Assembly: GCA_964412455.1 (NCBI GenBank) | Contig: CAYPOT010000009.1 | Coordinates: forward strand, 5,179 to 69,178 | DNA from: an uncultured Nitrospiraceae bacterium | Lineage (GTDB): Bacteria > Nitrospirota > UBA9217 | Length of the DNA: 64,000 nt | Direction of reading: 5' to 3' | Shown here: in pieces, positions 4,165 through 26,734 of the stretch | Layout of the letters: every line of letters starts with the position of its first letter | Numbering within the stretch: position 1 is the first letter of the stretch | Notes under the pieces: generated by a model | What the model was told of the DNA's origin: nothing | Databases searched by the model: none | Seen by the model: the letters and a program-made list of their open reading frames with translations, nothing else | Position numbers and translations under genes: made by a program

Positions 4165-5262
4165 ATGAACCTTATCCCCCGCAAGAAGACTCGTTCGATC
4201 GCCCTCGGCAGCGTGAAGATCGGCTGGGGCTCGCCGGTTGCCGTCCAGTCCATGTGCAACACGGACACTCGGGACGCCGACACCACGCTCGTGCAGATCC
4301 GGCGTCTTGAAGCAGCCGGTTGCGAGATCGTCCGGCTTGCCGTGCCCGACACCGAGGCCGCGAAGGCCATCGGGAAGATCCGGAAAGGTACGACCGTTCC
4401 GCTCGTGGCCGATATCCACTTCGATCACCGGCTTGCCCTCGAAGCGGTGAAGCAGGGCGTTGATGGCCTTCGCATCAATCCGGGCAATATCGGAGGCAGG
4501 GACAAGGTCGCGGAAGTAGTGAGCGCCTGCAAGGACCGGCGTCTTCCCATTCGCATCGGGGTGAACGCGGGATCGCTCGAGAAGCACCTGCTAGAAAAGT
4601 ACGGCCACCCCACTCCTGAGGCTATCGTCGAGAGCGCGTTCGGCCATATTCGCATTCTTGAGGACCTGGATTACCGGGAGATCAAGGTCTCGCTCAAGGC
4701 GTCGGACGTTCTGACCACGGTCGAGGCCTACCGCCTGTTTGCGAAGCAGTCGGACTATCCTCTGCACATCGGCATCTCCGAGGCGGGCACGATCCACTCC
4801 GGCACGATCAAGTCGAGCGTCGGCCTCGGGATCCTGCTCGCCGAGGGCATCGGCGACACCATGCGGGTGTCGCTTACCGCGGACCCGGTCGAAGAGGTCC
4901 GCGTGGCCTACGGGATCCTTAAATCGCTCAAGATCCGTGAGCGGGGAGTGAATCTTATCTCCTGCCCCACCTGCGGCAGGACCGAGATCAATATCATCGG
5001 CCTTGCCGAAGAAGTGGAGCGCAGGCTCGGCCATATCACCGAGCCGCTCACCGTCGCGGTCATGGGCTGCGTGGTGAACGGGCCGGGCGAAGCGCGCGAG
5101 GCCGACATCGGCATCGCCGGCGGCAAAGGCGTGGGCATGCTGTTCAAGCACGGCGAGATCGTGAAAAGGTTCGACGAGAAAGAACTGGCGGATGTGCTGG
5201 TGAGGGAAGTTGAGAAGATGGTTCAATTACGTTCAAAGTTCAAGGTTCAAAGTTCAAAGTAG
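4165..5262 (+). CDS. ispG: 4-hydroxy-3-methylbut-2-enyl diphosphate synthase
   Basis: GcpE-family sequence throughout, with Fe-S cysteines in ISCPTCGRT and MGCVVNGPGE. The last ~13 codons are encoded by a GTTCAAAG-type tandem repeat. Confidence 0.92.
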   Translation: MNLIPRKKTRSIALGSVKIGWGSPVAVQSMCNTDTRDADTTLVQIRRLEAAGCEIVRLAVPDTEAAKAIGKIRKGTTVPLVADIHFDHRLALEAVKQGVDGLRINPGNIGGRDKVAEVVSACKDRRLPIRIGVNAGSLEKHLLEKYGHPTPEAIVESAFGHIRILEDLDYREIKVSLKASDVLTTVEAYRLFAKQSDYPLHIGISEAGTIHSGTIKSSVGLGILLAEGIGDTMRVSLTADPVEEVRVAYGILKSLKIRERGVNLISCPTCGRTEINIIGLAEEVERRLGHITEPLTVAVMGCVVNGPGEAREADIGIAGGKGVGMLFKHGEIVKRFDEKELADVLVREVEKMVQLRSKFKVQSSK

Positions 5263-5374: not shown

Positions 5375-5665
5375 ATGTCGACTATATCGATCAAAGGTGA
5401 TTCTTCGGAAACAGTCAGGTCACTCCTGACAAGTGCGTTGGACAGGGAAAAGCGCATTATTACTGACAGTTTGCGAACAACACGCGATAAGGTGAATGCC
5501 CTGGCAATAATGCTGTCGGTTGATGTTGAAAAGCTGATGCGGGGCGAGATCGAGCATGCTGAATCAAAGGACATGCAATTAATCGAACTCGAAGGGGAAG
5601 TCGAACTGCTCAGGCATCTTGAGACAGAGCTCAGGGAACTTGAAACCCTTGAAATATGCAGATAA
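5375..5665 (+). CDS. Small coiled-coil hypothetical protein (possible partner of the downstream TumE-like gene)
   Basis: 96-aa ORF preceded by GGAGG. Its end overlaps the next gene by 10 nt. No family recognised. Confidence 0.4.
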   Translation: MSTISIKGDSSETVRSLLTSALDREKRIITDSLRTTRDKVNALAIMLSVDVEKLMRGEIEHAESKDMQLIELEGEVELLRHLETELRELETLEICR

Positions 5666-6051
5666 AGGCATACCTTGACGGAATTCTCGATACACTTGCC
5701 GCGAATCCCCATGTGGAAGCCCAAAGTATTTCCTTTGAAGAACGCCCTCCCGATGCAGTCATCATAACAGGTATTGTCGCATTCATCGACGGCTCAAAAC
5801 TGCATATCAAAGAATTCCTGGTCCTGAAACCCGCTCATGCGGCTATCCTCAAGTATGGCTATCACTACGTGTCGAGTAAAGGTGAATTGATCTTCCGATA
5901 CGACAATGCGCTCGATCCCAAGGCGAGGGGATTGTCGACCTATCCGGAGCACAAACATGCTCCCGACGGATTAAAAGAAACCCGAAGACCATCGTGGCAG
6001 GATATTTTACGAGAAATTTCGAGCTCAATAGGCCAGTACATCAGGAAATAA
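5656..6051 (+). CDS. TumE-like (DUF6516) toxin-family protein
   Basis: YGYHY...FRYDNALDP...STYPEHKH resembles the RYDNAPHH..FPHHKH signature I recall for the TumE/DUF6516 family. Confidence 0.5.
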   Translation: MQIKAYLDGILDTLAANPHVEAQSISFEERPPDAVIITGIVAFIDGSKLHIKEFLVLKPAHAAILKYGYHYVSSKGELIFRYDNALDPKARGLSTYPEHKHAPDGLKETRRPSWQDILREISSSIGQYIRK

Positions 6052-6069: not shown

Positions 6070-6171
6070 ATGCGTTATTCCCGTTTGTTCATCCCCACCC
6101 TGAAAGAAGCCCCGACCGACGCCGAGGCGGTCTCGCACAAGCTCATGGTGCGCGCGGGCTTCGTGCGATAA
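6070..6171 (+). pseudogene. Truncated duplicate of the proS 5' end (33 codons then TAA)
   Basis: [33 protein letters not shown] parallels the proS start at 13824. Segment 6112-6155 is identical to 13866-13909. Confidence 0.9.
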
Positions 6172-6288: not shown

Positions 6289-6534
6289 ATGAAAACGCTG
6301 ATGAGCGAGAGGGGTCAGGTGGTGATCCCGAAAAAGATCCGGGAGACCATTCACCTCCATAAAGGCGACGAACTGGAGATCGAGGTGCGCGATGAGACGA
6401 TCGTGCTGAAGCCGCTTCGCAGGTTCAAGGCCAAAAAATGGCAGGATTACGCCGGAATCGGTGAAGGCATCGTGGCTGCCCATCTCAAGGACAAGAAGAA
6501 GGAAAAAGCCGATGAAGATGCTTATTCTCGATAG
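6289..6534 (+). CDS. AbrB/SpoVT-family antitoxin (VapB/MazE-like)
   Basis: N-terminal SERGQVVIPKKIRETIHLHKGDELEIEV swapped-hairpin motif. Overlaps the downstream PIN gene. Confidence 0.8.
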   Translation: MKTLMSERGQVVIPKKIRETIHLHKGDELEIEVRDETIVLKPLRRFKAKKWQDYAGIGEGIVAAHLKDKKKEKADEDAYSR

Positions 6535-6931
6535 CTACGCACTGCTCTGTCTTTTCGATAAAAAGCGCAGGACGGAGAAGGAAGCGATAATGTCCTATCT
6601 TGAGGATGCGGGCAAAGGCAAGGCGAAGCTTTATATCAGCAAGATCAACGAAGGTGAAGTGTTTTATAAGCTCTATAAGTATTTCGGCGCCGAGATCGCG
6701 ACCGGATTCAGGGCAGACCTCAAGCGGGGAATGTTCCCCCTGCATGTCGTGCCCGTGAATGATAAACGAATAGACGAAGCGTCCGTGATTAAGGCGAAAT
6801 ATCCGGTATCCTACGCCGACGCATTTTGCATAGAACTTGCCAGGGACATGAACCTGCCTGTGGTGACAGGTGATCCGGAATTCGAGGCTGTGAAGGACCT
6901 GATAAAGCTACAGCCGCTTGCGGAACAGTAG
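6512..6931 (+). CDS. PIN-domain toxin (VapC-like)
   Basis: MKMLILDSYAL (first acidic residue) ... EGEV ... YADAFCIELA ... VTGDPEF, a typical PIN acidic-residue pattern. Start taken at ATG 6512, overlapping the antitoxin. Confidence 0.75.
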   Translation: MKMLILDSYALLCLFDKKRRTEKEAIMSYLEDAGKGKAKLYISKINEGEVFYKLYKYFGAEIATGFRADLKRGMFPLHVVPVNDKRIDEASVIKAKYPVSYADAFCIELARDMNLPVVTGDPEFEAVKDLIKLQPLAEQ

Positions 6932-6950
6932 CTCCTATGCGGACTTTCCG

Positions 6951-7046
6951 CACGGCGAGATCGTGAAGAAGTCCGATGAGAAGGAATTGGCCGATGTGCT
7001 GGTGAGGGAAGTGGAAGATTTAGTTCGGCAAAAAAATAAAAGGTAA
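6951..7046 (+). pseudogene. Remnant of a diverged ispG 3' end (31 codons plus stop)
   Basis: HGEIVKKSDEKELADVLVREVEDLVRQKNKR* parallels the native ispG C-terminus HGEIVKRFDEKELADVLVREVEKMV (5147-5225). Confidence 0.85.
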
Positions 7047-7115
7047 GATCGTATTTCGTTTGGTGTCTCTTACATTGATAAAATGCACCAATGTTGTTTA
7101 AGAGAGATTTCAATT

Positions 7116-8435
7116 ATGAAAAAATATTATGATCCTTTATATGGTGAAATCAAGCTAGATGAGCTTGTCTTTAGTATTATTGAAAAATGTCCTGAAATAA
7201 AGCGGCTCAGATATGTCGGCCTCATGAATTTCAAATCTTTGAGCATGCTACCTTTAACAAGCATCACGAGGTTAGAACATACAATTGGTCTATCGTACCT
7301 AGCACAATTATTTGCCGACTCAAATTCTTTTTCAAAAACATCGAGGAACAATTTAATCGTCGCTTCACTTTTTCATGATGTTAACAGCGCGTCATTTGGA
7401 CATGCTATTGAATGGGCAGTGGATCGCTATACGCCTTATAACCACGAAAAGGAAACCGAGTGGTTAGCTGATAAAGAAAAGACCTCGTTTTTAAACAAAA
7501 AGCCAATATTTATTGAGCAATATGGTGTGACAAGATATGATTTGGAAAAAGAATATGGATTTAACTTGACTAAGGCTTATCAAATTATTAACGGAGTGGA
7601 TTCATTTACAATTAACAATAATGGAATAGATCTAGATAACGTTGACAACGTTTTTCGTATGGGTTTATACATGGGGCTGGAACCTTTCGAAAAGGGATGC
7701 CCTGTAAGGTTAGCCAAGAGTTTAAAGATAGTTGACGGGCGTGATAATTTTGTTATTAAAGAGGAAGCTATTGACTTAGTGATGACATGGTATCAATTAA
7801 GAGCGAATATTTACGGGAGATTTATTTACTCCGAAGAGTATATGGGTTATGAATATCTTTTATTTCAACTTATTGCTGAGTATGCAAAACACGTTGAGTT
7901 TGATAGCATAAGAAATCTTTTTAATTACACGGATGAAAATCTATTGTGGCATTTTTATGATAAGAAGAATTCGCTCCCGTCGGTAAGTAATATAGCGAGC
8001 ATGTTATTATTGCATGATATTCCTAAGACATACGCAATATTGCGCTCAGATGAATTTGACAAAAAAGAAAAACTAATTAAACCTGGAATTCTAGATGCTA
8101 TTGCCCAAAGTGTGAGTGAGTATTTGCACAATTCTAAAGAGGTTTCGAACACATCATCAGGGGAAATATTTTTGCATTTAACGACAGACGATAGAAAAAC
8201 CAACAGACAAATTGACTTTTATGTAGAGAAGAGTGGAGAAGTTGTTAAGCAATCTATAGGTTTCGATAAGAGATACATTGTTATTGGTGTATTGGGGAAA
8301 AAAAATCTGTCAGAAAAAGTAAAAACGCTAATCGCAGAAAAAACCATTGAAAAGCTTAGAAGCAGTAATTTGGGTAATTTCGATAATATTGAATTCGTCG
8401 AATCAAATGCGTTAAAGCAAAAAGTGCTATTCTAG
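7116..8435 (+). CDS. HD-domain phosphohydrolase, SAMHD1/dGTPase-like
   Basis: YDPLYGEIKL...EIKRLRYVGL...TRLEHTIGLSYLA...LFHDVNSASFGH parallels the dNTP-triphosphohydrolase N-terminal layout (H...HD). The region is AT-rich. Confidence 0.65.
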   Translation: MKKYYDPLYGEIKLDELVFSIIEKCPEIKRLRYVGLMNFKSLSMLPLTSITRLEHTIGLSYLAQLFADSNSFSKTSRNNLIVASLFHDVNSASFGHAIEWAVDRYTPYNHEKETEWLADKEKTSFLNKKPIFIEQYGVTRYDLEKEYGFNLTKAYQIINGVDSFTINNNGIDLDNVDNVFRMGLYMGLEPFEKGCPVRLAKSLKIVDGRDNFVIKEEAIDLVMTWYQLRANIYGRFIYSEEYMGYEYLLFQLIAEYAKHVEFDSIRNLFNYTDENLLWHFYDKKNSLPSVSNIASMLLLHDIPKTYAILRSDEFDKKEKLIKPGILDAIAQSVSEYLHNSKEVSNTSSGEIFLHLTTDDRKTNRQIDFYVEKSGEVVKQSIGFDKRYIVIGVLGKKNLSEKVKTLIAEKTIEKLRSSNLGNFDNIEFVESNALKQKVLF

Positions 8436-8451
8436 CCGCACCTTTTAATTT

Positions 8452-9660
8452 ATGGAAAAGAAAAAAGATATTTCGCATTTTGATTTGCTTGATTGGAATT
8501 TTACTAGAGAAGATTCGAGACTCTACTTGCACAATTTCTGTTGGTATCCTTCAAGATTCATCCCAATAATCCCAGCCCACTTAATTCAAGCCCTAAGCAA
8601 GACCAATGAAACTGTGCTGGATCCGTTTTGCGGAATAGGGACTACGTTAGTCGAGGCTTTGAAGCAGAGGCGAAATGCAATTGGCGTTGATTTAAATCCA
8701 ATCGCATGCTTTGTCTCTAAAACTAAAGGAAAAATATTGACAGGTCATAAAGTAAACCTGTCTCTAATTGAAGGCTTGTTAGAAAACCTGGCGCCGTTGA
8801 GTGGTGATGATCTATTCACAAAAAAACGCACAGGTAGAGGTCATTATAATTTACGGGAGAAGTCAATCCCAAATTACGCTGTCAATGTGGAATGGTTTCA
8901 TCCCGAAACTTTAAAAATGCTTTCGCATATATACTATTCTGTCGAAGATCTTCCGAGAGGACTTACGAGGGATATATGCAAAATATTTTTTATTTCAATT
9001 CTCATGCAGTCCTCCGGGCACGATTTGAATAAGCCATACACTTATTATGCAGACAATGTGAAGCCTAAAAAAGAAAAATTGATTAAAGACGCCTACAAAC
9101 TATATGTGCAAAAATTGGATAAATTTTTATGTGAATATAAGCTCATAGAGTTACCCGAGAAAAACAGGCTGGATTTTGCCGTATACAACGAAGATGCGAG
9201 AGGGTTAGAAGGTTTGGTGGATAAAAAAGTTGACCTTATAGTTACTTCGCCTCCGTATTTAAATGTTACTGACTATACAACTGGCTTTAGGTTAGCTCAT
9301 CTGTGGTATAGCTTTCAAAAGGATATGCGTATTGAGGACATTAAAAGAAGAGAAATTGGTGCTCGATACAGGCGGAAGTCACGTAACAGTTTAAATGAAT
9401 ATGTCGGGGATATGCAGTCAGTCCTTTGCAAAATGGACAGCGTTTTAAAGACCAATGGGTATCTTTGCTTGATTCTTGGTGAATCACAAAAATACTCCAA
9501 GATTGTGAATAAGATAATAATGGACTTTATGTCGAACGAATTGCGGTTAGAATATATTGATTCTTTTAGTCGTGAGATAATAAAAAAATTCTTCATTCAT
9601 CCAAATGGTGGGGGTGTCAGTACAGAAGAAATTATTATTTACAGAAAAAAAAGAAAGTGA
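8452..9660 (+). CDS. DNA methyltransferase (N6-A or N4-C type, SPPY catalytic motif)
   Basis: AdoMet motif VLDPFCGIGTT (about 8620-8646) and catalytic VTSPPYLNVTDY (9244-9258). Motif I precedes motif IV by about 200 aa. Confidence 0.8.
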   Translation: MEKKKDISHFDLLDWNFTREDSRLYLHNFCWYPSRFIPIIPAHLIQALSKTNETVLDPFCGIGTTLVEALKQRRNAIGVDLNPIACFVSKTKGKILTGHKVNLSLIEGLLENLAPLSGDDLFTKKRTGRGHYNLREKSIPNYAVNVEWFHPETLKMLSHIYYSVEDLPRGLTRDICKIFFISILMQSSGHDLNKPYTYYADNVKPKKEKLIKDAYKLYVQKLDKFLCEYKLIELPEKNRLDFAVYNEDARGLEGLVDKKVDLIVTSPPYLNVTDYTTGFRLAHLWYSFQKDMRIEDIKRREIGARYRRKSRNSLNEYVGDMQSVLCKMDSVLKTNGYLCLILGESQKYSKIVNKIIMDFMSNELRLEYIDSFSREIIKKFFIHPNGGGVSTEEIIIYRKKRK

Positions 9661-10766
9661 GGTGTGTCTGCGCTATGGAAAATCACATCGTCATGATGCC
9701 TAATATGATAATACCATATGGCTACGAAATAGTGCCAATTATGGCTTATCCTGCTGGTTTTATCTACAGATTTAGATTTGATGAGGAATGGCTTTCAGAT
9801 AGGATAAAAGCCGATGTGTCTTCATTGTCAGCGAAAAAGGGTTATATCGTTTTCAGAGATCCAGAAAGCGCTACGTTTTACCCCATAAGGCATATCACAA
9901 TCAAGGTGGCGCAAAGAATAGGTAAATACTATTATTTTGAATATGAATTAAATGAAATATTTGACTTTGATTCTAACGAAACATGGAGGACAAAGCAAAT
10001 AACTCAATTTAATGACTCTTTTAAGAGTTTTCATGAATCAGAGTTTAAAGACAACATTCCTGGTAAAGATATGAAGCCCCTCGTATTTTTGACTAATTTT
10101 GCACCAACCATAAATAATGAACATGTCCAATTTACAAATCCATTGGAAAATGAGTTGGAGCGATGGGGAAATATAATTTCAATTATTAAAAATATAAAGT
10201 TTTATGAAAACGTAGAATTTATAAAAATCCTTGATATAGTGCCAATGAAAAAGCGAGACGAGGAAGTGCAAGTTAAAGAGAATTATTTATTTGTACAAGA
10301 AGACGGCGATTATAAGTTGAGGATATTTCAGCTTAAGCCTAAAGGATCGGTAGAAAGGATCGAACCGAAAGATATTGAAGTAAGATCAGACGACAAATAT
10401 ATTAGCGTCATAAGAAATAAACAACGCGCAGTAGGGAAGTATGATGTGCTAAGTTTCGTTTTCCGCGTGCATGCCGGCAGTGGAGGCCAGAGAAGTTATT
10501 TAGATGTTCTACATGCTCCCAAAACAGAAGCAGCCCAGTACATTGCGCCGACACTGTATCTTCCAGTAGCTATTCAAGGAAAAAGAAAGCTAATGGTTAT
10601 AAGAATTTTATTTGCCTTTGTCTTAGTCTCATTCTATCTTTTTCCTGAGGCTATAAGTTTCATATCTGATCACAGGATTGTGAAGGATTTTGCTATGGTC
10701 CTCTTCACTATTTCTGTGATAGATATTCTGAAAGAAATACGGGACCTGTTTAAGGCGAATAGATAA
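9657..10766 (+). CDS. Hypothetical protein with C-terminal double transmembrane anchor
   Basis: 369-aa ORF (alternative ATG at 9675). Overlaps the upstream stop by 4 nt and the downstream start by 1 nt. C-terminus has LMVIRILFAFVLVSFYLF and FAMVLFTISVIDIL hydrophobic helices. No family recognised. Confidence 0.6.
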   Translation: MRCVCAMENHIVMMPNMIIPYGYEIVPIMAYPAGFIYRFRFDEEWLSDRIKADVSSLSAKKGYIVFRDPESATFYPIRHITIKVAQRIGKYYYFEYELNEIFDFDSNETWRTKQITQFNDSFKSFHESEFKDNIPGKDMKPLVFLTNFAPTINNEHVQFTNPLENELERWGNIISIIKNIKFYENVEFIKILDIVPMKKRDEEVQVKENYLFVQEDGDYKLRIFQLKPKGSVERIEPKDIEVRSDDKYISVIRNKQRAVGKYDVLSFVFRVHAGSGGQRSYLDVLHAPKTEAAQYIAPTLYLPVAIQGKRKLMVIRILFAFVLVSFYLFPEAISFISDHRIVKDFAMVLFTISVIDILKEIRDLFKANR

Positions 10767-12907
10767 TGGTTATCGTTGGCCTAAACCTTGGTTCAACAGA
10801 ATTTAATAAGAAATTACACGACGGAGGCATCTGTATTGTTGTTGATGGTAAAGTAAAATTCGCAGTGGCTGAAGAGCGTATTTCGCGCAGAAAGCGCTCA
10901 GGCGGATTCAGGGAATCACTGGACTATGCTCTTTCTTGTTTGAATTTAGATAGGAGTAATATCGATCTTGTTGTTTATTCAAGCTGTTGTGAGAGTATTA
11001 ACAATAGCATTAACATCGCAGAATTACAGAATATAAAATCAATTCCCTGTGACCATCATCTATCTCACGCTTTAAGTGTGTATCTGACATCTCCTTATGA
11101 AAAGGCACTTATTGCCGTTTTAGACGCAGGAGGAAATCTTCTCGGTAATGACAACCATAGTGACTGGTGGCTTCATTCCCGAGAGCAGCAATCATACTAT
11201 GTCGCAGAAGGGAACAATGTCACGCTAATTGATAGAGATTTTATCTTACCTGAAGCAGCAGGCATAGGGGAAATATATCGTGCCTTTACATATTATCTTG
11301 GGTGGGAATCTTCTCGATTTGCAGGCAAGACCATGGCGCTTGCCGCATATGGAGATCCTGGTGCATTTAAAGGTAACAACATATTTGACTTGGACATAAA
11401 TGGGAACATACGCTCACATATAAAAAATAATCCGATAGAGCCCTTGTCTATGGTTGAGCAGTTACTCGATAGATATGGGAGAAAAAATGTGCCTCCTCGG
11501 AAAGATGGTCAACCGATTCTACAAGTGCATAGTGATCTTGCTCGCTGGATACAAAATGAAACGGAGGACATAGTAACCGCAAAACTTAACTATTTAATGC
11601 GTAAGACAGGCATTTCTAATCTTTGTTTGGCAGGAGGAGTTGCCTATAATTGCTCGATGGTTGGAAAGATAATGAATAATACTATGGCAAATAATGTTTT
11701 TCTCCAGCCGGCATCGGGTGATCAAGGTCAATGTCTTGGCAATGCCATGTTTGGATACACTCAAATTAGAAATGCTTGGATAAGAGTTAATCCATTCAAT
11801 CCATATCTAGGATGCGGTATTGAAATAAACCATGATACAATTCGAGGCGCGTTAAAGAGTAATAATCAGGTTACAATTAATGCCCCGCGTGATATAGCAG
11901 TAACAACTGCAAAATTACTCTCGCAAGGAGAAATAGTGGCGTGGTTCCAAGATCGGAGTGAATTCGGTCCTCGTGCCTTGGGCAATCGAAGTATTCTTGC
12001 AAACCCCTGTCTTTCGAAGAGTAAGGAGAAATTGAATTCAATAAAGGGTCGTGAAGACTTTATGCCTTTTGCTCCGACTGTTCTATACGAAAGTGCAAAA
12101 GACTATTTTGTGATTTCCGATGAATGTCCTTTTATGACTGCAGCAGTTAAGGTGCGCCCAAACGTCAGAGAAACAATACCGGCAGCTGTCCATGTGGACG
12201 GAACATCTAGAGTCCAAACATTGAGAAAAGAAAATAATCCGCTATTTTACGATTTGATACATGAATTCTACAAGTTGACAAAAGTGCCATTAATTATTAA
12301 TACTTCATTCAATGCAGCTGGTGAGCCTATTGTTGAAACACTTAATAATGCAATAGACACTTTTATGAAATTAGACATAAGATTTATGGTAGCTGGTTCG
12401 TTCCTTCTGGAAAAGCCATTGGTTAGAACATCTATGCCTAGTGTCAAAGATGCAGGTCGGTTGTTGGATATTGTATTTGGGGCGGATCTGATCGTCAACG
12501 AGACGGAATTAAGTGCGCTGCTTAGTGAGCGCTTTCCGGGAATTAAATCCTTTCCTAGAGATAAATTTTTGCTCAATGAAAAATTTATTAATTGGTTAAA
12601 AAACGGCAGAAAAACGACAACCATTAGGTATAAGAAAGTGGGTATAGATTTCCCAGTGGCGACATGTTTGCCGCTAATTCCGACAAAAGATTTTTCAAAA
12701 AATCGAGGTGAAGCGCCAGTTGGCTTTTTGAAAATAAGAAAATATATAATAAAAAAATATCGGGATCTTAATGAAACAGATGCTCGTAATGATGGATTTA
12801 AAACTCTAACGGAGCTAAGAAGTGTTCTTTTCGATATCTATGGTGCTATACAAGAAGATGACTATGTTTCTATATACTATGTTCAAATAAAAAATAATCC
12901 AAGTTAA
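10766..12907 (+). CDS. NodU/CmcH/TobZ-family carbamoyltransferase fused to a C-terminal ASCH-like domain
   Basis: DHHLSHA, LDAGGN, GGVAYNC, PASGDQG, FGPRALGNRSILANP, HVDGTSRVQT and INTSFNAAGEPIV blocks match the carbamoyltransferase family. The last ~115 aa (NWLKNGRKTTTIRYKK...DDYVSIYYV) resemble ASCH. Confidence 0.8.
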   Translation: MVIVGLNLGSTEFNKKLHDGGICIVVDGKVKFAVAEERISRRKRSGGFRESLDYALSCLNLDRSNIDLVVYSSCCESINNSINIAELQNIKSIPCDHHLSHALSVYLTSPYEKALIAVLDAGGNLLGNDNHSDWWLHSREQQSYYVAEGNNVTLIDRDFILPEAAGIGEIYRAFTYYLGWESSRFAGKTMALAAYGDPGAFKGNNIFDLDINGNIRSHIKNNPIEPLSMVEQLLDRYGRKNVPPRKDGQPILQVHSDLARWIQNETEDIVTAKLNYLMRKTGISNLCLAGGVAYNCSMVGKIMNNTMANNVFLQPASGDQGQCLGNAMFGYTQIRNAWIRVNPFNPYLGCGIEINHDTIRGALKSNNQVTINAPRDIAVTTAKLLSQGEIVAWFQDRSEFGPRALGNRSILANPCLSKSKEKLNSIKGREDFMPFAPTVLYESAKDYFVISDECPFMTAAVKVRPNVRETIPAAVHVDGTSRVQTLRKENNPLFYDLIHEFYKLTKVPLIINTSFNAAGEPIVETLNNAIDTFMKLDIRFMVAGSFLLEKPLVRTSMPSVKDAGRLLDIVFGADLIVNETELSALLSERFPGIKSFPRDKFLLNEKFINWLKNGRKTTTIRYKKVGIDFPVATCLPLIPTKDFSKNRGEAPVGFLKIRKYIIKKYRDLNETDARNDGFKTLTELRSVLFDIYGAIQEDDYVSIYYVQIKNNPS

Positions 12908-12939
12908 TTAGTTGCTCTGCTAAACGACAAAACACAAAA

Positions 12940-13782
12940 ATGACGCAATTTTTGAAAGACTTGCTGCGAAACTATGGGCTCTTGTACATAACGCTTACGC
13001 AGCTTTTGAGTGAGCGACCAGGAAACAAGTATGCTTCGCTGGACGAGTACTATCACAGTCTGGGCATGCAGACGCCTGATAACCCAATGTTTTACGTGCA
13101 TCCGAGCTCGGATGGCAAAACGCGCTACTTAGACGAGGGAGAGCACGATATTGAAGCGCGTGATGATGCGGGTAACAAGGTTGGAAAAGTAGTTGGCGTT
13201 TTGGAACTTCCGGAAGACGAATTCTATTTTTTTCAAGCATTCCGTCCTGGCATGTTCGATTTAGAAAAGGATCTTCCTTCATTTCTTTTTGAAATGGCAT
13301 TAATTTATGCTAATTCTCTATTTGAAAATTACATATCTAGCATTATTCGTCTCAGGTTTCAAAAACACCCAGAACTGATGGGTGTCAATAAACAAGTGAC
13401 TTATGGTCAAGTAATTAAGAGCAATTCGAAACAAGATGTCATCGAGCACCTGATTAATCGAGAAGTCCAACAATTGATGTATGAGCCTATCGGTGCAGTA
13501 TTGGAACGAATGCGAGCAAAATACGGATTTCGAGATCTAACCACGAAGTACGACGAGGAAATAATTTATCTGTCACTTATAAGAAATTGCGTTATGCATA
13601 ATTCTCGGAAGGTTGATTCTAAGCTTGCCACCAATAAACCTAAGCTAGTATTAGGCGAAAGATTGCCTGTTGAAAAGAGTCTCGTGGACACAGCAATTCA
13701 TACTTACCGAAAATTTTGCTATGAAGTTGATATCATGTTAGAAGCTATTGGATCACTCAAACAAACAAGTGAGCCTCTATGA
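12940..13782 (+). CDS. HEPN-motif protein (putative RNase effector)
   Basis: 280-aa ORF with an Rx4H motif, IRNCVMHN (13582-13599), in an alpha-helical C-terminal half. It is the last gene of the AT-rich operon. Confidence 0.5.
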   Translation: MTQFLKDLLRNYGLLYITLTQLLSERPGNKYASLDEYYHSLGMQTPDNPMFYVHPSSDGKTRYLDEGEHDIEARDDAGNKVGKVVGVLELPEDEFYFFQAFRPGMFDLEKDLPSFLFEMALIYANSLFENYISSIIRLRFQKHPELMGVNKQVTYGQVIKSNSKQDVIEHLINREVQQLMYEPIGAVLERMRAKYGFRDLTTKYDEEIIYLSLIRNCVMHNSRKVDSKLATNKPKLVLGERLPVEKSLVDTAIHTYRKFCYEVDIMLEAIGSLKQTSEPL

Positions 13783-13823: not shown

Positions 13824-15518
13824 ATGCGCTACTCGAAACTGTTCATTCCTACATTAAAAGAGGCGCCGACCGACGCCGAGGCGGTCTCGCACAAGCTCAT
13901 GGTGCGCGCCGGCTTCGTGCGCCAGCTCGCGGCGGGGCTCTATATCTACCTTCCGCTGGGCATCCGGGTGATGGAGAAGATCAACCGCATTATCCGCGAG
14001 GAAATGAACGCCATCGGCGGCCAGGAAGTGACCATGCCGGTGCTGAATCCCGCCGAGGTGTGGCAGCAGACCGGGCGGTGGGATGCCATCGGCGGCGAGA
14101 TGTTCCGTCTCAAGGACCGCGGCGGCAGGGACATGTGCCTGGCCATGACCCACGAGGAGACCATGACCTGGCTCGCGGCGCACGATATCCGTTCCTACCG
14201 GGAACTGCCCCAGATCTGGTACCAGGTGCAGACGAAATTACGGGACGAAGCGCGGCCCAAGAGCGGCGTACTCCGGACGCGCGAGTTCACCATGAAGGAC
14301 TCCTACAGCTTCGACGCCGATGAGGCCGGGCTCGACCGGTCCTATCAACTTCATCTCGAGGCCTACAAGAAGATCTACTCCCGCTGCGGAATTCGATTTC
14401 ACGTGGTCCAGAGCGACACGGGCATGATGGGCGGCAGCATGGCGCACGAGTACATGGCGCCTTCTCCGGCGGGCGAGGACGACGTGGCGCTCTGCGATGG
14501 CTGCGGGTACGCGGCGAACACGGAGCTCGCGCTGTCCGTGCCGAAGGCGGCTGCATCATCGAACGACAGTTACGAGGAGATCGCTACGCCGGAACGGCGA
14601 ACCATCGACGAGGTGACCCGCTTCCTGAAGGTCACGCCGGACCGTTTGCTCAAGTCCATCCTCGTCACGACCGACCAGGGACCGCTGCTGGCGCTGGTGC
14701 GCGGCGACCAGACCCTGCATGAGAAGAAGCTGGCCAAGCTTATCGGACCCCATCGGCCCGCGCAGAAGGACGAGGTGAAGGCCGCTCTCGGCGTGCCTGT
14801 CGGATTCATCGGCCCCATGGGCCACAAGATCCGGAAGATCGCTGACCTGGTGCTGAAACAGGGGACCCACATCGCCGGCGCGAACAAGGAAGGCTTCCAT
14901 GTGAAGGGTGTCTCCGCGGACAAGCATTTCAGCGACGCCGAGTTCGCGGACATCCACACCGCGGCGGAAGGCGACGCCTGCGCCCAGTGCGGCAAGCCGC
15001 TGCGCATCGAGCGGGTCATCGAGATCGGGAACATCTTCAAGCTGGGCACCAAGTACTCCGTCCCGCTCAAGGCGAACTACCTTGACGAACAGGGGAATGA
15101 GAAGCCCATCATCATGGGGAGCTACGGCATCGGCCCGGCGCGCATCGCCGCCGCGGCCATCGAGCAGGGGAACGACGAGAACGGCATCATCTGGCCGGCG
15201 GCGATCGCGCCCTACCAGGTCCTGATCGTGCCGGTGAACGTGAAAGACCAGCGCTCCATGGACGTGGCCGAGGAGATGCACACGGCCCTTGAGGAAAAAG
15301 GGTTCGAGGCGCTCATGGACGACCGCGACGAACGGGCCGGCGTCAAGTTCAAGGACGCGGACCTTATCGGCATTCCGTACCGGGTCGTCATCGGCGAGAA
15401 GAACCTGAAGGAAGACCTGGTGGAGCTTAAGGAGCGGAAGACCGGGGTCGTGGTCAAGGTGAAGGTCGCCGACGCGGTGGCGGCGATCGTGAAGAAGATC
15501 GTGATGGAGAACGCGTAA
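13824..15518 (+). CDS. proS: Prolyl-tRNA synthetase
   Basis: Class II aaRS motifs (REFTMKDSYSF; GSYGIGPARI) with ProRS-type sequence throughout. Start at ATG 13824 ([15 protein letters not shown]). Confidence 0.93.
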   Translation: MRYSKLFIPTLKEAPTDAEAVSHKLMVRAGFVRQLAAGLYIYLPLGIRVMEKINRIIREEMNAIGGQEVTMPVLNPAEVWQQTGRWDAIGGEMFRLKDRGGRDMCLAMTHEETMTWLAAHDIRSYRELPQIWYQVQTKLRDEARPKSGVLRTREFTMKDSYSFDADEAGLDRSYQLHLEAYKKIYSRCGIRFHVVQSDTGMMGGSMAHEYMAPSPAGEDDVALCDGCGYAANTELALSVPKAAASSNDSYEEIATPERRTIDEVTRFLKVTPDRLLKSILVTTDQGPLLALVRGDQTLHEKKLAKLIGPHRPAQKDEVKAALGVPVGFIGPMGHKIRKIADLVLKQGTHIAGANKEGFHVKGVSADKHFSDAEFADIHTAAEGDACAQCGKPLRIERVIEIGNIFKLGTKYSVPLKANYLDEQGNEKPIIMGSYGIGPARIAAAAIEQGNDENGIIWPAAIAPYQVLIVPVNVKDQRSMDVAEEMHTALEEKGFEALMDDRDERAGVKFKDADLIGIPYRVVIGEKNLKEDLVELKERKTGVVVKVKVADAVAAIVKKIVMENA

Positions 15519-16234: not shown

Positions 16235-16432
16235 GTGAACCCCTTGAAAAAACTGTTTGCTGTCATGCTTTCATTGCTTATCGTAGCGGCATTCGTCTTT
16301 ATCGGCTGCGAGAAGAAACCCGAACCGCCGAAGCCCGCACCGGCCCCGGCAGTAGCACCGCCGCCTCCGGCACCAGCACCGGCCCCGGCTCCGGCCCCGG
16401 CACCCACGCCTGCGAAGCCTGCAAAGAAGTAA
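16235..16432 (+). CDS. Small lipoprotein with Pro/Ala-rich tail
   Basis: Signal peptide with lipobox (VFIGC) followed by KPEPPKPAPAPAVAPPPPAPAPAPAPAP. A terminator follows. Confidence 0.6.
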   Translation: MNPLKKLFAVMLSLLIVAAFVFIGCEKKPEPPKPAPAPAVAPPPPAPAPAPAPAPAPTPAKPAKK

Positions 16433-23483: not shown

Positions 23484-24272
23484 ATGAGTGTGTCCAGTAA
23501 AATAGGGCTCCGGATCAAAGAGCTGCGGGAAAAGGCCGATATGAGCCAGGAGTCATTGGCGCAGAAGATGAAGATGTCCCGCCCTGCCATAACGCAGATC
23601 GAGAAAGGTACGAGAAAGGTCTCTGCCGAAGAACTGGTGAACTTTTCGCAAATGTTCCACGTACCTGTTGATGGCATTTTGAATCAGGGAAAAGAGCCGG
23701 AAGTCTTTCTTCAGGAGGAAAGGGCTGCAAAGGCGGCCAAGCCGCAGATGCGTATCAGCGTTCCGCAGAAGAACCTTCAAAAGTTCAAGGAGGTGCTGTT
23801 GTACATCCTGAACAAGGTGGGCGCAAAGGAGAACATCGGCGAGACCGTCGTCTACAAGCTGCTCTACTTCATAGATTTCGATTTCTACGAGAAATATGAG
23901 GACCAGCTGGTCGGCGCCACGTACATCAAGAACAAATATGGTCCTACACCGGTCGAGTTTGCTAAGATCGTCGAGAAGATGATCAAGGACGGTGAGATCG
24001 AGAAGGTCAAGAGCGAATACTTCAAGCTCCAGCAGACCAAGTACCTGCCCCGCCGGAAGCCGGACCTCACGAAGCTCCAGGCGACCGAGATCGAGGTGAT
24101 CGACGACGTGCTGAACCGGCTCTCGGAAATGAACGCCAACCAGATCAGCGCGTACTCGCACAGCGATGTTCCCTGGATGTCGACGAAGGACGGCGAAACC
24201 ATCGATTACGAATCGGTCTTTTACCGCACGCCGCCCTATTCCGTGCGGGCCTACACGGATGAGAACGGATGA
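23484..24272 (+). CDS. XRE-HTH / Panacea (DUF4065, SocA-like) domain antitoxin
   Basis: N-terminal LRIKELREKADMSQESLAQKMKMSRPAITQIEKG HTH. C-terminal VVYKLLYFIDFDFYEKYEDQLVGATYIKNKYGPTP resembles the DUF4065/Panacea core. Confidence 0.7.
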   Translation: MSVSSKIGLRIKELREKADMSQESLAQKMKMSRPAITQIEKGTRKVSAEELVNFSQMFHVPVDGILNQGKEPEVFLQEERAAKAAKPQMRISVPQKNLQKFKEVLLYILNKVGAKENIGETVVYKLLYFIDFDFYEKYEDQLVGATYIKNKYGPTPVEFAKIVEKMIKDGEIEKVKSEYFKLQQTKYLPRRKPDLTKLQATEIEVIDDVLNRLSEMNANQISAYSHSDVPWMSTKDGETIDYESVFYRTPPYSVRAYTDENG

Positions 24273-24784
24273 GCCGATCGTTCTACAGTGAATTCGACGG
24301 GACGCTGTTTGAAAAGATCACTCATGTCCCGGAGTTCGAGAAAGATCTAAAAAAGCTCTCCAAGCGATTCTCTTCGCTCGAAAAGGACCTGCAGACCTTC
24401 ATCAAGGTCGCGATGCATCTATTTCACAAGCAGAAGATCGACAGCAATGCGATCTTTCATATATCCGATCTCGGGATCAAGTCTCCGAATATATACAAGG
24501 CCAAGAAGTTTGCGTGCCGGGCGTTGAAGGGCAAAGGAGCGCAATCGGGAATCAGGGTTATTTATGCATATCATGAGGAAGCGGATTGGGTAGAGTTTGT
24601 CGAGATTTATTATAAGGGCGATAAGGAGAGCGAGGGCAGGGAGAGGATAGCTCGAATATATGGTAAACCTCGACAGGTAGGCGGACCGCTTGCGAGCCGC
24701 AAGGCCTTGAGAGAATCGCTCCGCGCCAAAGGAAAAGCGCCGTCCGAAGTCGTGATCGCATCGAGAAAACAGGAGAGGGATTAG
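24269..24784 (+). CDS. RelE/ParE-superfamily toxin (HigB-like)
   Basis: Overlaps the antitoxin stop by 4 nt. LKGKGAQSGIRVIYAYHEEADWVEFVEIYYKGDKE matches the K(S)GGxRVIY...IYxKxxKE toxin pattern. Confidence 0.65.
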   Translation: MSRSFYSEFDGTLFEKITHVPEFEKDLKKLSKRFSSLEKDLQTFIKVAMHLFHKQKIDSNAIFHISDLGIKSPNIYKAKKFACRALKGKGAQSGIRVIYAYHEEADWVEFVEIYYKGDKESEGRERIARIYGKPRQVGGPLASRKALRESLRAKGKAPSEVVIASRKQERD

Positions 24785-24839
24785 ATGCCCTCCCTATACG
24801 TTGACACGGCGTCGCGCAGAAATTATGCTGCCAACACCC

Positions 24840-24880
24840 TTGACAATGGCTTCAAGGCTGTTGTATTATAAATACAACAG
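24840..24880 (+). promoter_or_regulatory. Promoter with overlapping palindromic operator
   Basis: TTGACA (24840-24845), 18 nt, TATTAT (24864-24869). A 9-bp inverted repeat CTGTTGTAT-N5-ATACAACAG (24858-24880) overlaps the -10 element. Confidence 0.55.
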
Positions 24881-24901
24881 TAAGTAAGGGAGGTGCTCAC
24901 C

Positions 24902-25276
24902 ATGTCAACCAAAGCGACTTTCGGGGAATTCTTCAAACAAAAAAGGATCGAGCAGAAAAAGACCTTGCGGCAATTCTGTGCGGAGAACAAGCTGGACCCC
25001 GGCAATATCAGCAAGCTCGAACGGGGGCTCATGCAACCGCCGCAGGGGAAAGACAAACTCGAAGAGTATGCCAGGTATCTTACAATCAAAAAAGGAACCG
25101 ACGACTGGTATAAGTTCTTCGATCTGGCCGCTATTGAGGCCGGCCGGATACCTGAGGAGCTGCTGAGCGATGCTAAGATGGCCGCAAATCTGCCGATCCT
25201 GTTCCGGACCTTGCGGGGAAAGAAAATATCGGAAAAGAAACTCGACGAACTGGTGGAGATGATTCGCAAGGCATAG
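24902..25276 (+). CDS. XRE-family HTH transcriptional regulator
   Basis: FGEFFKQKRIEQKKTLRQFCAENKLDPGNISKLERG helix-turn-helix. Confidence 0.7.
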   Translation: MSTKATFGEFFKQKRIEQKKTLRQFCAENKLDPGNISKLERGLMQPPQGKDKLEEYARYLTIKKGTDDWYKFFDLAAIEAGRIPEELLSDAKMAANLPILFRTLRGKKISEKKLDELVEMIRKA

Positions 25277-25339
25277 CCTATCCATTTCTCAGTCTGTTTA
25301 ATTAGGTTTTCGAAAGAATGCGTATATCCAAGTAATGAC

Positions 25340-26387: not shown

Positions 26388-26484
26388 AAACAACAAAGCC
26401 CCGTTCGCTAGTTTCGAGGCGCCCTGCGGTACCCCACGAACGAGGACTTACTTGTTGCTATTATGATAATGCAGGGGCGGAAGT

Positions 26485-26692: not shown

Positions 26693-26734
26693 GCAATATG
26701 GTATCCAGTAAGATGTTGAAAATGAGTAGGCAAT

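Follow-up and report, generated by a model that had tools for sequence, protein, structure and literature searches.

Within the window, the whole 64,000-nucleotide stretch analysed here, five co-directional ORFs occupy positions 7,116 to 13,782 of the + strand, with successive spacings of a 16-nt gap, a 4-nt overlap, a 1-nt overlap and a 32-nt gap. On recheck, these positions and spacings all match those of the preliminary description of the locus. The open frame of gene 1 itself begins at 7,083. The 4-nt overlap between gene 2 and gene 3 (X) presupposes a GTG start at 9,657; with the ATG at 9,675, the start in public gene calls for the 363-residue product, it becomes a 14-nt gap. The genes and their bordering features are:

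6,950–7,026, + strand: ispG 3'-end remnant bounding the AT-rich insertion on its left, 83% identical to 5,148–5,224 (the end of intact ispG)
7,116–8,435, + strand: gene 1, SAMHD1-like HD phosphohydrolase, 439 aa (Pfam HD, E 9e-6)
8,452–9,660, + strand: gene 2, exocyclic-amine (N6/N4) DNA methyltransferase, 402 aa (Pfam N6_N4_Mtase, E 4e-20)
9,675–10,766, + strand: gene 3, X, a new family, 363 aa (369 aa with the GTG at 9,657)
10,766–12,415, + strand: gene 4, carbamoyltransferase part, residues 1–550 (Pfam Carbam_trans_N, E 2e-38; Carbam_trans_C, E 5e-64)
12,416–12,907, + strand: gene 4, C-terminal part with a linker, a small beta/alpha element and ASCH (Pfam ASCH, E 5e-6)
12,940–13,782, + strand: gene 5, probable HEPN-type protein, 280 aa, motif R215-N-C-V-M-H220
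13,824–15,518, + strand: proS, a core gene at the right edge of the hotspot (Pfam tRNA-synt_2b, tRNA_edit and HGTP_anticodon on the public gene call; GC3 0.88)

The block is AT-richer than its flanks, as had been described. GC content per 500-nt window is 0.32–0.42 within it against 0.53–0.65 outside, falling from about 0.5 to 0.34 directly downstream of the ispG remnant, and GC3 per gene is 0.32–0.40 against 0.77–0.88 in rseP, ispG and proS. So large a difference is far from what chance would give and is typically seen after recent horizontal acquisition. The gap between ispG and proS also holds a TumE-type toxin-antitoxin (TA) pair, a MazE/PIN pair, the ispG 3' remnant and a proS 5' remnant (6,070–6,167) that duplicates the first 98 nt of proS, in line with the hotspot of TA modules and gene remnants reported earlier. 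The block is a horizontally acquired cassette inside an ispG–proS insertion hotspot.

Gene 1 conserves the HD metal-binding set H55, H87-D88 and D174 (motif GIDLDNVD), and a profile of three orthologues matches SAMHD1 structures (E 2e-8) across the first 200 residues, a stretch that takes in the catalytic motifs. The HDV/I and GID.DN.D motifs are kept in all ten cassette HD orthologues, and a pattern search finds RLEH(T/S).G in seven. Gene 2 carries methyltransferase motif I (DPFCGIGT, residues 57–64) and motif IV (TSPPY, residues ~265–269), the latter invariant in 12 of 12 orthologues, those of the sister cassette described below included. The PADLOC Type II methyltransferase model PDLC03364 matches it full-length (E 2e-37), and DNA cytosine-N4 methyltransferases are among its best solved relatives.

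X, modelled by AlphaFold2 with a mean pLDDT of 94.7, has a PUA/EVE-like head (residues 1–120, nt 9,675–10,034), a helical linker, an Ig-like beta-sandwich (residues ~180–301, nt 10,212–10,577) and a C-terminal two-helix membrane hairpin (residues 304–362, nt 10,584–10,760). Neither X nor its 60 relatives belong to any family in Pfam, NCBIfam (June 2026), PADLOC or PHROGs. The "membrane orphan" of the preliminary description is not featureless: its predicted structure describes a new membrane-anchored family with a PUA/EVE-like head. X immediately precedes the carbamoyltransferase wherever a locus extends far enough to reveal the order, and does so in about 25 loci.

Gene 4 (10,766–12,907, + strand) combines a carbamoyltransferase with an ASCH domain, and the Pfam matches confirm both the NodU/CmcH/TobZ-type enzyme and the ASCH tail first suggested. 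The Kae1-like N-domain carries HHLSH...D120...D319 and is followed by a YrdC-like C-domain (nt 11,909–12,415). The catalytic-type residues are invariant across 36 homologues, the AlphaFold2 pLDDT of this part is about 95, and the closest solved structures are NovN, GdmN and TobZ (E 1e-48 to 1e-71). One close unfused relative lies in a radical-SAM/RiPP-like biosynthetic cluster that lacks X. Given these tailoring-enzyme structures and this biosynthetic relative, the carbamoyltransferase clade is not exclusively nucleic-acid directed. This kinship with antibiotic-tailoring O-carbamoyltransferases counts against the defence proposal made below. The cassette carbamoyltransferase is absent from IMG/VR; viral relatives are only ~30% identical.

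A disordered linker (residues 554–564, pLDDT <50) leads towards the ASCH domain (residues 605–700, nt 12,578–12,865), whose octapeptide G-R-K-T-T-T-I-R is of the YqfB type, the GxKxxTxR subtype defined in bioRxiv 10.64898/2026.02.27.708502. A profile of 21 tails finds as its best solved match E. coli YqfB/N4-acetylcytidine amidohydrolase (1te7, 9kyf), at a weak E of 0.036, and the conserved K616, T619, R621, D676 and Y692 align with the YqfB catalytic residues K21, T24, R26, E74 and Y89 (PMC6972931). This weak match and the motif agreement suggest assignment to the YqfB (N4-acylcytosine amidohydrolase) subtype. Such a subtype points to a cytosine acceptor rather than adenine N6, so the analogy with TsaD drawn earlier would not hold in this respect.

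The gene 5 family counts 502 representatives among 1.84 billion proteins. The protein itself has no direct family match in Pfam (HEPN models included), PADLOC, NCBIfam or PHROGs. Over 50 homologues, R215 and H220 do not vary and N216 hardly does; three of the 50 match HEPN_RiboL-PSP weakly and one HEPN_Apea, and the best solved match falls on the HEPN motif in ApeA, a defence protein. The conserved residues and the weak matches of these four homologues make a HEPN assignment probable. Four of the five initial domain calls (HD, methyltransferase, carbamoyltransferase::ASCH and HEPN) therefore stand, the last as probable only.

Gene order in other genomes separates a conserved unit from its surroundings. 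The arrangement HD, methyltransferase, X and carbamoyltransferase::ASCH occurs in one order in the window and in loci L003, L005, L088, L089, L090, L111, L112 and L113, and with one pair inverted in L093, where the two pairs lie on opposite strands. The four-gene block recurs in 10 or more independent loci at 35–57% identity; named hosts are Mariprofundaceae, Gammaproteobacteria, Sedimenticola, Patescibacteria and Thermodesulfovibrionales. Across loci, all four enzymes retain their catalytic motifs. The close HD subfamily is essentially confined to the company of carbamoyltransferase::ASCH, and for at least 26 close HD clusters the longest contig has the same length as that of a carbamoyltransferase::ASCH cluster, which serves as a proxy for a shared contig. 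The HEPN gene is absent from all other cassette loci and was seen only on copies of this contig; its GC3 (0.395) is similar to that of the cassette. The conserved unit is therefore four genes, which do co-localise in other genomes as the preliminary description anticipated, and HEPN has been added at this locus alone. The "five-gene operon" holds as five packed co-directional ORFs but not as a jointly conserved set.

X and carbamoyltransferase::ASCH also stand alone, as two-gene loci with neither methyltransferase nor HD. In two further cassettes NUDIX replaces HD in the order NUDIX, X, carbamoyltransferase, followed in one of them by a separate ASCH gene. X, carbamoyltransferase and ASCH form the evolutionary core. 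Since this core exists without methyltransferase or HD, carbamoylation alongside methylation, the mechanism initially proposed, cannot be general. A sister cassette joins the HD and TSPPY-methyltransferase pair to an FAD-oxidoreductase and a guanylate-kinase-like/dCTP-deaminase-like fusion, without PADLOC model match, in place of X and carbamoyltransferase::ASCH. These swaps (NUDIX for HD, and the kinase/dCTP-deaminase-like fusion for X and carbamoyltransferase::ASCH) point to nucleotides and to cytosine C4/N4.

Restriction-modification (RM) genes adjoin the cassette in five of the nine loci with flanks. They are of Type ISP in L003 and L111, the latter also with ThsB-TIR and GIY-YIG nearby, and of Type I in L113 and L088; ResIII, a methyltransferase and an integrase lie near L005. 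The NUDIX variant is flanked by HsdR, a CTD7-MC3-LmuB_C module and Hachiman HamA. Together with the TA modules near the cassette in the window, this agrees with the defence-hotspot setting first suggested. The four-gene L112 and some two-gene loci, Nonomuraea L007 among them, have ordinary metabolic or housekeeping neighbours, which counts against a defence reading. On the locus itself, PADLOC-DB 2.0 returned generic methyltransferase models only, none naming a system; PADLOC, NCBIfam, Pfam and PHROGs contain no model for the four-gene system, and the literature searched yielded neither a defence system using a carbamoyltransferase nor an account of this composition. The cassette matches no described system, as had been supposed.

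Several known systems share parts of it. The nucleotide-depletion defences reportedly described by Tal et al. in 2022, dGTPase (SAMHD1/Dgt-like) and dCTP deaminase, resemble the cassette in its SAMHD1-like HD with intact metal ligands and the sister cassette in the kinase/dCTP-deaminase-like fusion beside the same HD–methyltransferase pair; they are single-gene systems, whereas the cassette has four genes including a DNA methyltransferase and a membrane protein, and neither the gene 1 HD nor the fusion matches any PADLOC model. Type II RM, Dpd, Dnd/Ssp, BREX and MADS are modification-based restriction systems, and the common trait is a Type II-like DNA methyltransferase in a defence island. 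Gene 2 has a weak PADLOC match to mad2, among many generic methyltransferase models, but neither a restriction endonuclease nor a Dpd, Dnd, Brx or Mad partner was found in the cassette with Pfam, PADLOC, NCBIfam or PHROGs, and the core occurs without a methyltransferase in other genomes. Type IV restriction enzymes couple EVE, SRA, YTH or ASCH readers to a nuclease (review PMC12707154), whereas the PUA-like readers here accompany a group-transfer enzyme together with a membrane anchor. TobZ, NovN and GdmN have the same Kae1-like and YrdC-like domains and motifs but act on sugar or polyketide substrates in biosynthetic clusters, without ASCH, X or a defence-island context. YqfB-type ASCH proteins (N4-acylcytidine amidohydrolases/tRNA ac4C erasers) share the GxKxxTxR octapeptide and the aligned Lys, Thr, Arg, acidic and Tyr residues. 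YqfB, however, is a free-standing 103-aa enzyme with Glu74, while the cassette ASCH is tethered to or encoded beside the carbamoyltransferase, has Asp at that position and, at an E of 0.036, is a putative hydrolase only. The phage 5hmC carbamoyltransferase, of the same two-domain TobZ/NodU-type family, carbamoylates 5hmC in ssDNA, RNA and 5hmdCTP with carbamoyl phosphate and ATP (Yang et al. 2021, eLife; PMC8670742). That enzyme is phage-encoded, unfused and of ~63 kDa, occurs together with a thymidylate-synthase-like dCMP hydroxymethylase and protects phage DNA; the cassette enzyme is bacterial, fused or adjacent to ASCH, and preceded by X without a hydroxymethylase.

Taken together, we propose a new anti-phage defence cassette built on cytosine-directed carbamoylation, acting mainly at the level of the nucleotide pool, with a probability of about 35%. 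Some function in defence or conflict is likely, a cytosine-based acceptor has slightly better than even odds, and the pool-directed cytosine version of defence is less likely than not. In TobZ, carbamoyl-AMP arises from carbamoyl phosphate and ATP. The YrdC-like domain would likewise make carbamoyl-AMP from these, and the Kae1-like domain would hand it on to an acceptor derived from cytosine and bound in the flexibly tethered ASCH pocket, with the carbamoyl group ending up on N4 of (d)C/(d)CTP or on the hydroxyl group of a 5-hydroxymethyl-(d)C nucleotide from phage. Hydrolysis of nucleotides in the same pool would fall to HD, or to NUDIX where a cassette has that instead. X, probably made together with the carbamoyltransferase because their coding regions overlap by 1 nt, may tether it to the inner membrane, its PUA-like head binding base or nucleic acid as recruiter or membrane effector. 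HEPN could be an optional extra RNase effector at this locus. The methyltransferase might give a self-mark or licensing step; this is the least understood link, and it is hard to see what a DNA methyltransferase would do in a pool mechanism, which counts against it, as do the failure of the gene 1 HD to match PADLOC dGTPase defence models and the weak sequence match behind the ASCH–YqfB link. The carbamoylation of 5hmC by a phage enzyme of the same family is a biochemical precedent for the proposal. The EVE-like head of X, of a PUA-like reader fold class found in modification-dependent restriction enzymes (review PMC12707154), also speaks for it.

The specific idea of the preliminary description was a host-DNA epigenetic system; this would resemble Dpd, Dnd/Ssp or BREX-like modification-restriction, in that methyl and carbamoyl-type marks label the chromosome and unmarked invaders are attacked by HD, HEPN and/or X. 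The bona fide Type II-like methyltransferase, the PUA-like reader folds in both X and ASCH, the adjoining RM systems and a family member able to carbamoylate bases in DNA all fit it. We consider it unlikely, given a core that does without any methyltransferase (two-gene loci, NUDIX variant), no recognisable conserved nuclease, with HEPN specific to this locus, no evident sequence-recognition domain in the carbamoyltransferase, and no hydroxymethylase or TET enzyme at cassette loci to make a hydroxyl acceptor in host DNA. Least probable is abortive infection by signal and effector, in which carbamoyltransferase::ASCH, once infection occurs, makes a carbamoylated nucleotide as second messenger or toxic analogue, and X binds it through the PUA-like head and disrupts the membrane by means of the two-helix anchor; HD or NUDIX would restrain the signal, a logic like that of CBASS or Pycsar enzyme and transmembrane-effector pairs. 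The minimal unit, an enzyme and a ligand-type head with two transmembrane helices in overlapping coding regions, suits this, as do the nucleotide hydrolases among the accessory genes, the good activity of YqfB-type ASCH domains on free nucleosides (PMC6972931) and the acceptance of free 5hmdCTP by the phage enzyme (PMC8670742). No precedent is known for a carbamoylated messenger, however, no sensor domain was recognised in the cassette, the methyltransferase goes unexplained, and the hairpin of X could be a simple anchor.

Separate modules (HD–methyltransferase, X–carbamoyltransferase::ASCH, HEPN) might also co-travel in defence islands with no joint mechanism: each pair occurs without the other, the pairs of L093 are on opposite strands, and HEPN is found only here. 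This is quite improbable because unlinked neighbours would not hold a four-gene arrangement with minimal or overlapping spacers down to ~40% identity in at least nine loci of several phyla, and the confinement of the close HD subfamily also speaks against it. A last reading gives the core an accessory role outside defence, either in RNA modification or salvage (e.g. tRNA ac4C, cytidine), by analogy to TsaD/Kae1 and the ASCH tRNA ac4C erasers, or in tailoring a nucleoside, sugar or envelope molecule at the membrane. ASCH proteins do remove ac4C from tRNA, the carbamoyltransferase family mostly tailors sugars and antibiotics, and some loci have metabolic neighbours. We hold it to be just as improbable, since the distribution is sporadic and crosses phyla, the base composition marks the block as foreign to its host, integrases and RM genes repeatedly lie nearby, and the partners of the core include a SAMHD1-like HD and a HEPN protein as well as a DNA methyltransferase.

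Mapping the five proteins of the AT-rich block onto all fetched loci and clustering all neighbouring ORFs revealed a modular cassette with intact catalytic motifs in a defence-island setting. It consists of an HD-domain gene, a DNA methyltransferase (MTase) gene, a gene for a predicted membrane-anchored protein of a new family (X), and a gene for a carbamoyltransferase fused to an ASCH domain (CT::ASCH). In the window these are genes 1 to 4, followed by gene 5, a putative HEPN gene. The ORF listing agrees exactly with the co-directional arrangement given in the preliminary description, with a 16-nt gap, a 4-nt overlap, a 1-nt overlap and a 32-nt gap:

7116-8435, + strand: gene 1, HD protein
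8452-9660, + strand: gene 2, MTase
9657/9675-10766, + strand: gene 3, X
10766-12907, + strand: gene 4, CT::ASCH
12940-13782, + strand: gene 5, HEPN-type

With the ATG start at 9675, the gene 2/X junction has a 14-nt gap in place of the 4-nt overlap.

The HD-MTase-X-CT::ASCH block recurs in other genomes, being found in the window and in L003, L005, L088, L089, L090, L111, L112 and L113 (comparison loci). Identity between loci is 35-57%, and among the names of the sources are Mariprofundaceae, Gammaproteobacteria, Sedimenticola, Patescibacteria and Thermodesulfovibrionales. L093 has all four genes too, with HD and MTase encoded on the strand opposite to X-CT::ASCH. As for the five-gene unit originally proposed, the five packed ORFs are present in the window, but gene 5 is absent from all other cassette loci, and in L113 no fifth gene missed by gene calling was found downstream of the cassette. 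In all loci that extend far enough (about 25), the carbamoyltransferase gene comes immediately after X, CT::ASCH fusions of 35-55% identity are numerous, and X-CT::ASCH stands alone in many loci, mostly actinobacterial or from soil, with no other conserved neighbour. X is rare (72 clusters in a word-indexed search), and its contigs match the CT::ASCH contigs. The close HD subfamily comprises about 57 clusters, at least 26 of which match CT::ASCH clusters in longest-contig size, a proxy for presence on the same contigs. Pattern searches found TSPPY, DPFxGxGT, HDV/I, GID.DN.D and HHxSH kept in all cassette loci, and the GxKxxTxR octapeptide in 7 of the 9 loci whose match reaches the ASCH tail.

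Gene 1 matches Pfam HD (E = 9e-6), and a profile built from three orthologues matches SAMHD1 structures (E = 2e-8) with the RLEH, HD and GIDxD catalytic motifs aligned. The SAMHD1/dGTPase-like N-terminal layout with an H...HD...D metal site, previously read from motifs, is thus borne out by the profile match, and the orthologues keep the motifs. SAMHD1-type HD enzymes hydrolyse dNTPs. Unlike the defence dGTPase, a single-gene system with PADLOC models, this HD protein always lies within a multi-gene cassette and matches no PADLOC family, the defence dGTPase models included. Gene 2 is, as proposed, a DNA methyltransferase with DPFCGIGT and TSPPY motifs (Pfam N6_N4_Mtase, E = 4e-20; PADLOC Type II model MTase_II, E = 2e-37 over the full length). 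Its motif IV, TSPPY, is of the SPPY/F and not the D/NPPY type and is invariant across orthologues, and its best solved relatives include N4-cytosine MTases, aligned over motif I only.

Gene 4 had been described as a NodU/CmcH/TobZ-type carbamoyltransferase with an ASCH-like tail, and all three parts were matched: Carbam_trans_N (Kae1-like N-domain, E = 2e-38) and Carbam_trans_C (YrdC-like C-domain, E = 5e-64), both complete, and ASCH (E = 5e-6). It also matches the PHROG 'Nol-like carbamoyltransferase' (E = 1e-109), and the closest solved enzymes in the PDB are the antibiotic O-carbamoyltransferases NovN, GdmN and TobZ. TobZ-type enzymes use carbamoyl phosphate and ATP to form carbamoyl-AMP, from which the carbamoyl is passed to an acceptor. 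All 36 homologues compared share residues H97, H101, D120, D319, K427, R429 and N512-T513-S514; by analogy with TobZ, we take them to be the HxxxH...D...D metal site and the nucleotide and carbamoyl-phosphate residues. In the AlphaFold2 model (pLDDT 91), residues 554-564 form a disordered linker, which suggests that the ASCH module is flexibly tethered. In a profile search of genome contigs with the CT::ASCH alignment, the matches listed were only generic unfused carbamoyltransferases, covering residues ~18-550. When the 120 best carbamoyltransferases are ordered by neighbour joining, fused and unfused forms interleave, implying that ASCH was fused or split more than once, and one unfused relative, without X, lies in a radical-SAM/aaRS-like biosynthetic cluster. 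A purely nucleic-acid-directed enzyme clade was rejected on these grounds. In L088, the CT::ASCH gene (11097-13277) is read as two ORFs of 557 and 167 aa, either because of a frameshift or stop or because the ASCH tail split off naturally.

Searched with phmmer as a single sequence, the ASCH tail gave nothing beyond noise in the PDB, and a profile of 21 tails was needed to reach the best solved structure, E. coli YqfB (N4-acetylcytidine amidohydrolase), as a weak match (E = 0.036). The octapeptide GRKTTTIR, compared with GRKTITIR in YqfB, is of the GxKxxTxR subtype, which is the less common one. ASCH domains of the YqfB type act on N4-acyl-cytosine nucleosides, which they bind and hydrolyse, and Lys21, Thr24, Arg26, Glu74 and Tyr89 of YqfB are experimentally essential (PMC6972931). 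In the weak profile alignment, these correspond to K616, T619, R621, D676 and Y692, with Glu replaced by Asp; across the family, each is either invariant or conserved to 90% or more. The alignment can be considered meaningful since the octapeptide matches and the essential residues align and are conserved. Together with the removal of ac4C from tRNA reported for ASCH proteins, the likeness to YqfB points to cytosine N4, rather than adenine N6, as the base part that the ASCH domain would handle. The adenine N6 analogy with TsaD drawn in the preliminary description found no specific support, the TsaD and HypF models matching only marginally.

X and 60 of its relatives match no family in Pfam, NCBIfam (20.0), PADLOC (PADLOC-DB 2.0) or PHROG. 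The AlphaFold2 model of X (pLDDT 94.7) displays an alpha/beta head (1-120), helices, an Ig-like sandwich (~180-301) and two long C-terminal helices (304-362) that form a predicted membrane hairpin. Ig-like, STAT and RhoGDI-type sandwiches dominate a Foldseek search of this model against the PDB, which did not confirm the EVE/PUA-like fold suspected for the head. Gene 5 has no direct family match in Pfam, PADLOC, NCBIfam or PHROGs, and 502 representatives among 1.84 billion proteins. The Rx4H motif initially noticed, of the Rx4-6H type known from all-alpha HEPN domains, is well conserved in 50 homologues (R215 and H220 invariant, N216 at least 90%), three of which match HEPN_RiboL-PSP (best E = 4e-4) and one HEPN_Apea. 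The best PDB match falls on the HEPN motif of ApeA, a defence protein (E = 0.31), and the assignment of gene 5 as HEPN is probable.

Variant cassettes reveal exchange of the partner genes. A NUDIX hydrolase and an X homologue (hhalign probability 100%) lie upstream of each of two close carbamoyltransferases (44% identical) that are unfused. The NUDIX-X-CT cassette of L196 (5924-9701) adjoins an integrase, and that of L198 (5824-11251; also in L199) lies in a dense defence island, between Type I HsdR, a CTD7-MC3-LmuB_C module, and Hachiman HamA with a helicase. In L198, ASCH has its own 172-aa gene immediately downstream of the enzyme (GKKDTTVR; hhalign probability 99.9%), and next comes a 272-aa protein that bears an RNKLAH (HEPN-like) motif and has a weak HEPN_RiboL-PSP match. 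This gene and a 343-aa gene of L196 were rejected as gene 5 homologues (hhalign probability 3.6% and 0.2%, respectively). Since the RNKLAH protein is not homologous to gene 5, a HEPN-like gene seems to have arisen twice in the same position, judging from two cases only. A sister cassette, present in L114 (1277-6416) and L115 (3858-9036), combines an FAD-oxidoreductase-like protein (459 aa), a distant HD homologue (444 aa), a TSPPY N6_N4 MTase and a guanylate-kinase-like/dCTP-deaminase-like fusion, with defence genes such as HmaC, Schlafen-type helicase, MazG-like and PIN/MazE genes as neighbours. Only its MTase matches PADLOC, through generic MTase models only, and it may be a second undescribed system on a shared HD-MTase chassis.

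Restriction-modification (RM) genes adjoin 5 of the 9 four-gene loci with usable flanks (Type ISP at L003 and L111, Type I at L113 and L088, ResIII with an MTase at L005). The remaining neighbours are integrase, TA modules, and ThsB-TIR or GIY-YIG genes; ordinary neighbours are found at L112 and at the two-gene Nonomuraea locus (L007). Neither the single CT::ASCH protein nor the X alignment retrieved a relative from IMG/VR, and the CT::ASCH alignment retrieved from viral sequences only phage carbamoyltransferases of ~30% identity without ASCH. A prophage or phage origin was rejected, as no X or CT::ASCH relative appeared in the viral scans. In L090, a gene for a LexA-like repressor (LexA_DNA_bind and Peptidase_S24, 6652-7356) lies immediately upstream of the cassette HD gene and overlaps it; this may be merely the host lexA or a hint of SOS control.

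The gene content was compared with that of known systems. The cassette shares a DNA methyltransferase with Type II RM, which also has a cognate restriction endonuclease; the cassette genes matched no nuclease family, which means that the cassette is not an RM system. A phage member of the carbamoyltransferase family carbamoylates 5hmC in ssDNA, RNA and 5hmdCTP (PMC8670742). This phage-encoded pathway includes a thymidylate-synthase-like dCMP hydroxymethylase, whereas the cassette and its conserved neighbours contain none and the cassette has no phage origin, which sets the two apart. CBASS and Pycsar use a nucleotidyltransferase/cyclase making a cyclic nucleotide; the cassette has none and is therefore neither, only the layout of an enzyme with a TM protein being analogous. 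The partner proteins of the Dpd, Dnd, Brx and Mad systems are absent, and the PADLOC dCTP-deaminase model gave no match. Against the system-specific models of PADLOC-DB 2.0, HD, X, CT::ASCH and gene 5 match 0 families, and the only matches are to generic MTase models. The full-text literature, with incomplete coverage, contained no paper found to tie a carbamoyltransferase to phage defence. The earlier statement that no system of such composition had been described agrees with PADLOC-DB 2.0 and with the literature found. As judged from sequence, the cassette does not pass the tests that define any of the known systems considered, and in composition and predicted chemistry we regard it as a system of a new kind.

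Defence is the probable function of the cassette, and for the carbamoyl acceptor we lean slightly towards cytosine. Both together, as an attack on the cytosine nucleotide pool, have a probability of roughly one in three. The X, carbamoyltransferase and ASCH core is predicted to carbamoylate a cytosine-derived acceptor, because its swapped partners are nucleotide hydrolases (HD or NUDIX) and because X-CT::ASCH is replaced beside HD-MTase by a kinase/dCTP-deaminase-like enzyme. The dCTP-deaminase class acts on the C4-N4 position of the cytosine nucleotide. The same swaps and replacement make the pool of cytosine nucleotides the favoured target, which would be depleted or turned into a poisonous analogue, possibly of phage hm-dCTP. 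X would tether the enzyme at the membrane and act as recruiter or effector, and the MTase could provide a self-mark or a licensing step. More speculative, and rather unlikely in its full extent, is a new class of prokaryotic immunity. Here a carbamoyltransferase guided by a YqfB-type ASCH pocket would modify cytosine (N4 or 5-hydroxymethyl) in nucleotides or invader nucleic acid, with X, as a membrane-anchored PUA-like protein, reading out or localising the reaction, HD or NUDIX swappable, and MTase and HEPN optional, as a branch of an 'HD-MTase plus cytosine-modifying enzyme' family.

Several rival explanations were weighed against the nucleotide-pool attack. Methyl-plus-carbamoyl epigenetic marking of host DNA, the idea of the preliminary description, would suit a cassette with a DNA methyltransferase, and sits less easily with the many loci where X-CT::ASCH stands alone. 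Those solitary pairs and the inverted HD-MTase pair of L093 would fit independent neighbouring modules, a reading that has to accommodate a four-gene order kept down to about 40% identity. A carbamoylated nucleotide could instead be a signal activating X, in keeping with the CBASS-like layout of enzyme and TM protein. A non-defence RNA or metabolite function would be consistent with the tRNA activity of ASCH proteins and with the unfused relative in a biosynthetic cluster, and would have to explain the RM genes at five loci.

If the cassette is a defence system, its immunity chemistry would be new, since carbamoyl transfer to a nucleobase or nucleotide has until now been known only from phages, as a counter-defence modification, and X would add a new protein family to the defence repertoire. 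The YqfB-type ASCH domains, which are poorly understood, would also gain a biological role, and SAMHD1-like HD-methyltransferase pairs would seem to be a reusable chassis for cytosine-targeting enzymes. APOBEC deamination is already blocked by a phage carbamoyltransferase, and a cytosine/5hmC-directed enzyme with a built-in reader domain could serve epigenetic sequencing chemistry. Owing to the small size of the cassette (~5.8 kb) and its gammaproteobacterial versions, the hypothesis is directly testable in E. coli.

In the window, the block is clearly foreign DNA. The AT-richness first noted corresponds to a GC content of 0.32-0.42 inside and 0.53-0.65 outside, and GC3 is 0.32-0.40 per block gene compared to 0.77-0.88 in rseP, ispG and proS. 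A second short contig carries the same five genes, the window itself being a metagenome contig, and promoter and terminator scans performed no better than on shuffled sequence. The block lies between ispG and proS, where the TA modules and gene remnants of the proposed hotspot were recovered:

5375-6051: TumE-type toxin pair
6070-6167: proS 5' remnant, 85% identical to 13824-13921
6289-6931: MazE/PIN pair
6950-7026: ispG 3' remnant, 83% identical to 5148-5224

Both core genes at the flanks have left nested remnants here, which shows that replacement or insertion at this site was repeated and marks it as a hotspot. Between 5148 and 7026, the proS and ispG remnants separate three independent insertions (the TumE pair, the MazE/PIN pair and the AT-rich cassette), and the gap looks like the product of serial island replacement through recombination in the flanking genes.

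A second island of lower GC (0.44-0.52) at 23484-31408 is probably another defence island, and contains:

23484-24272: HTH and SocA/Panacea antitoxin-type gene
25752-26387: DUF3800
within 23484-31408: unannotated 315-aa ORF
27723-30569: Mrr_cat_2 nuclease-ResIII/DEAD helicase fusion, 948 aa
30608-31408: DUF5677

Elsewhere in the window, a small ORF (16235-16432, + strand) encodes a lipoprotein-like signal (…FIGC) and, after it, a low-complexity tail rich in Pro and Ala (PAPAPAPAPAP), and group II intron domains D1-D4 (Rfam RF02001, 53.6 bits, E = 6e-8) are found at 45749-45930 on the + strand.
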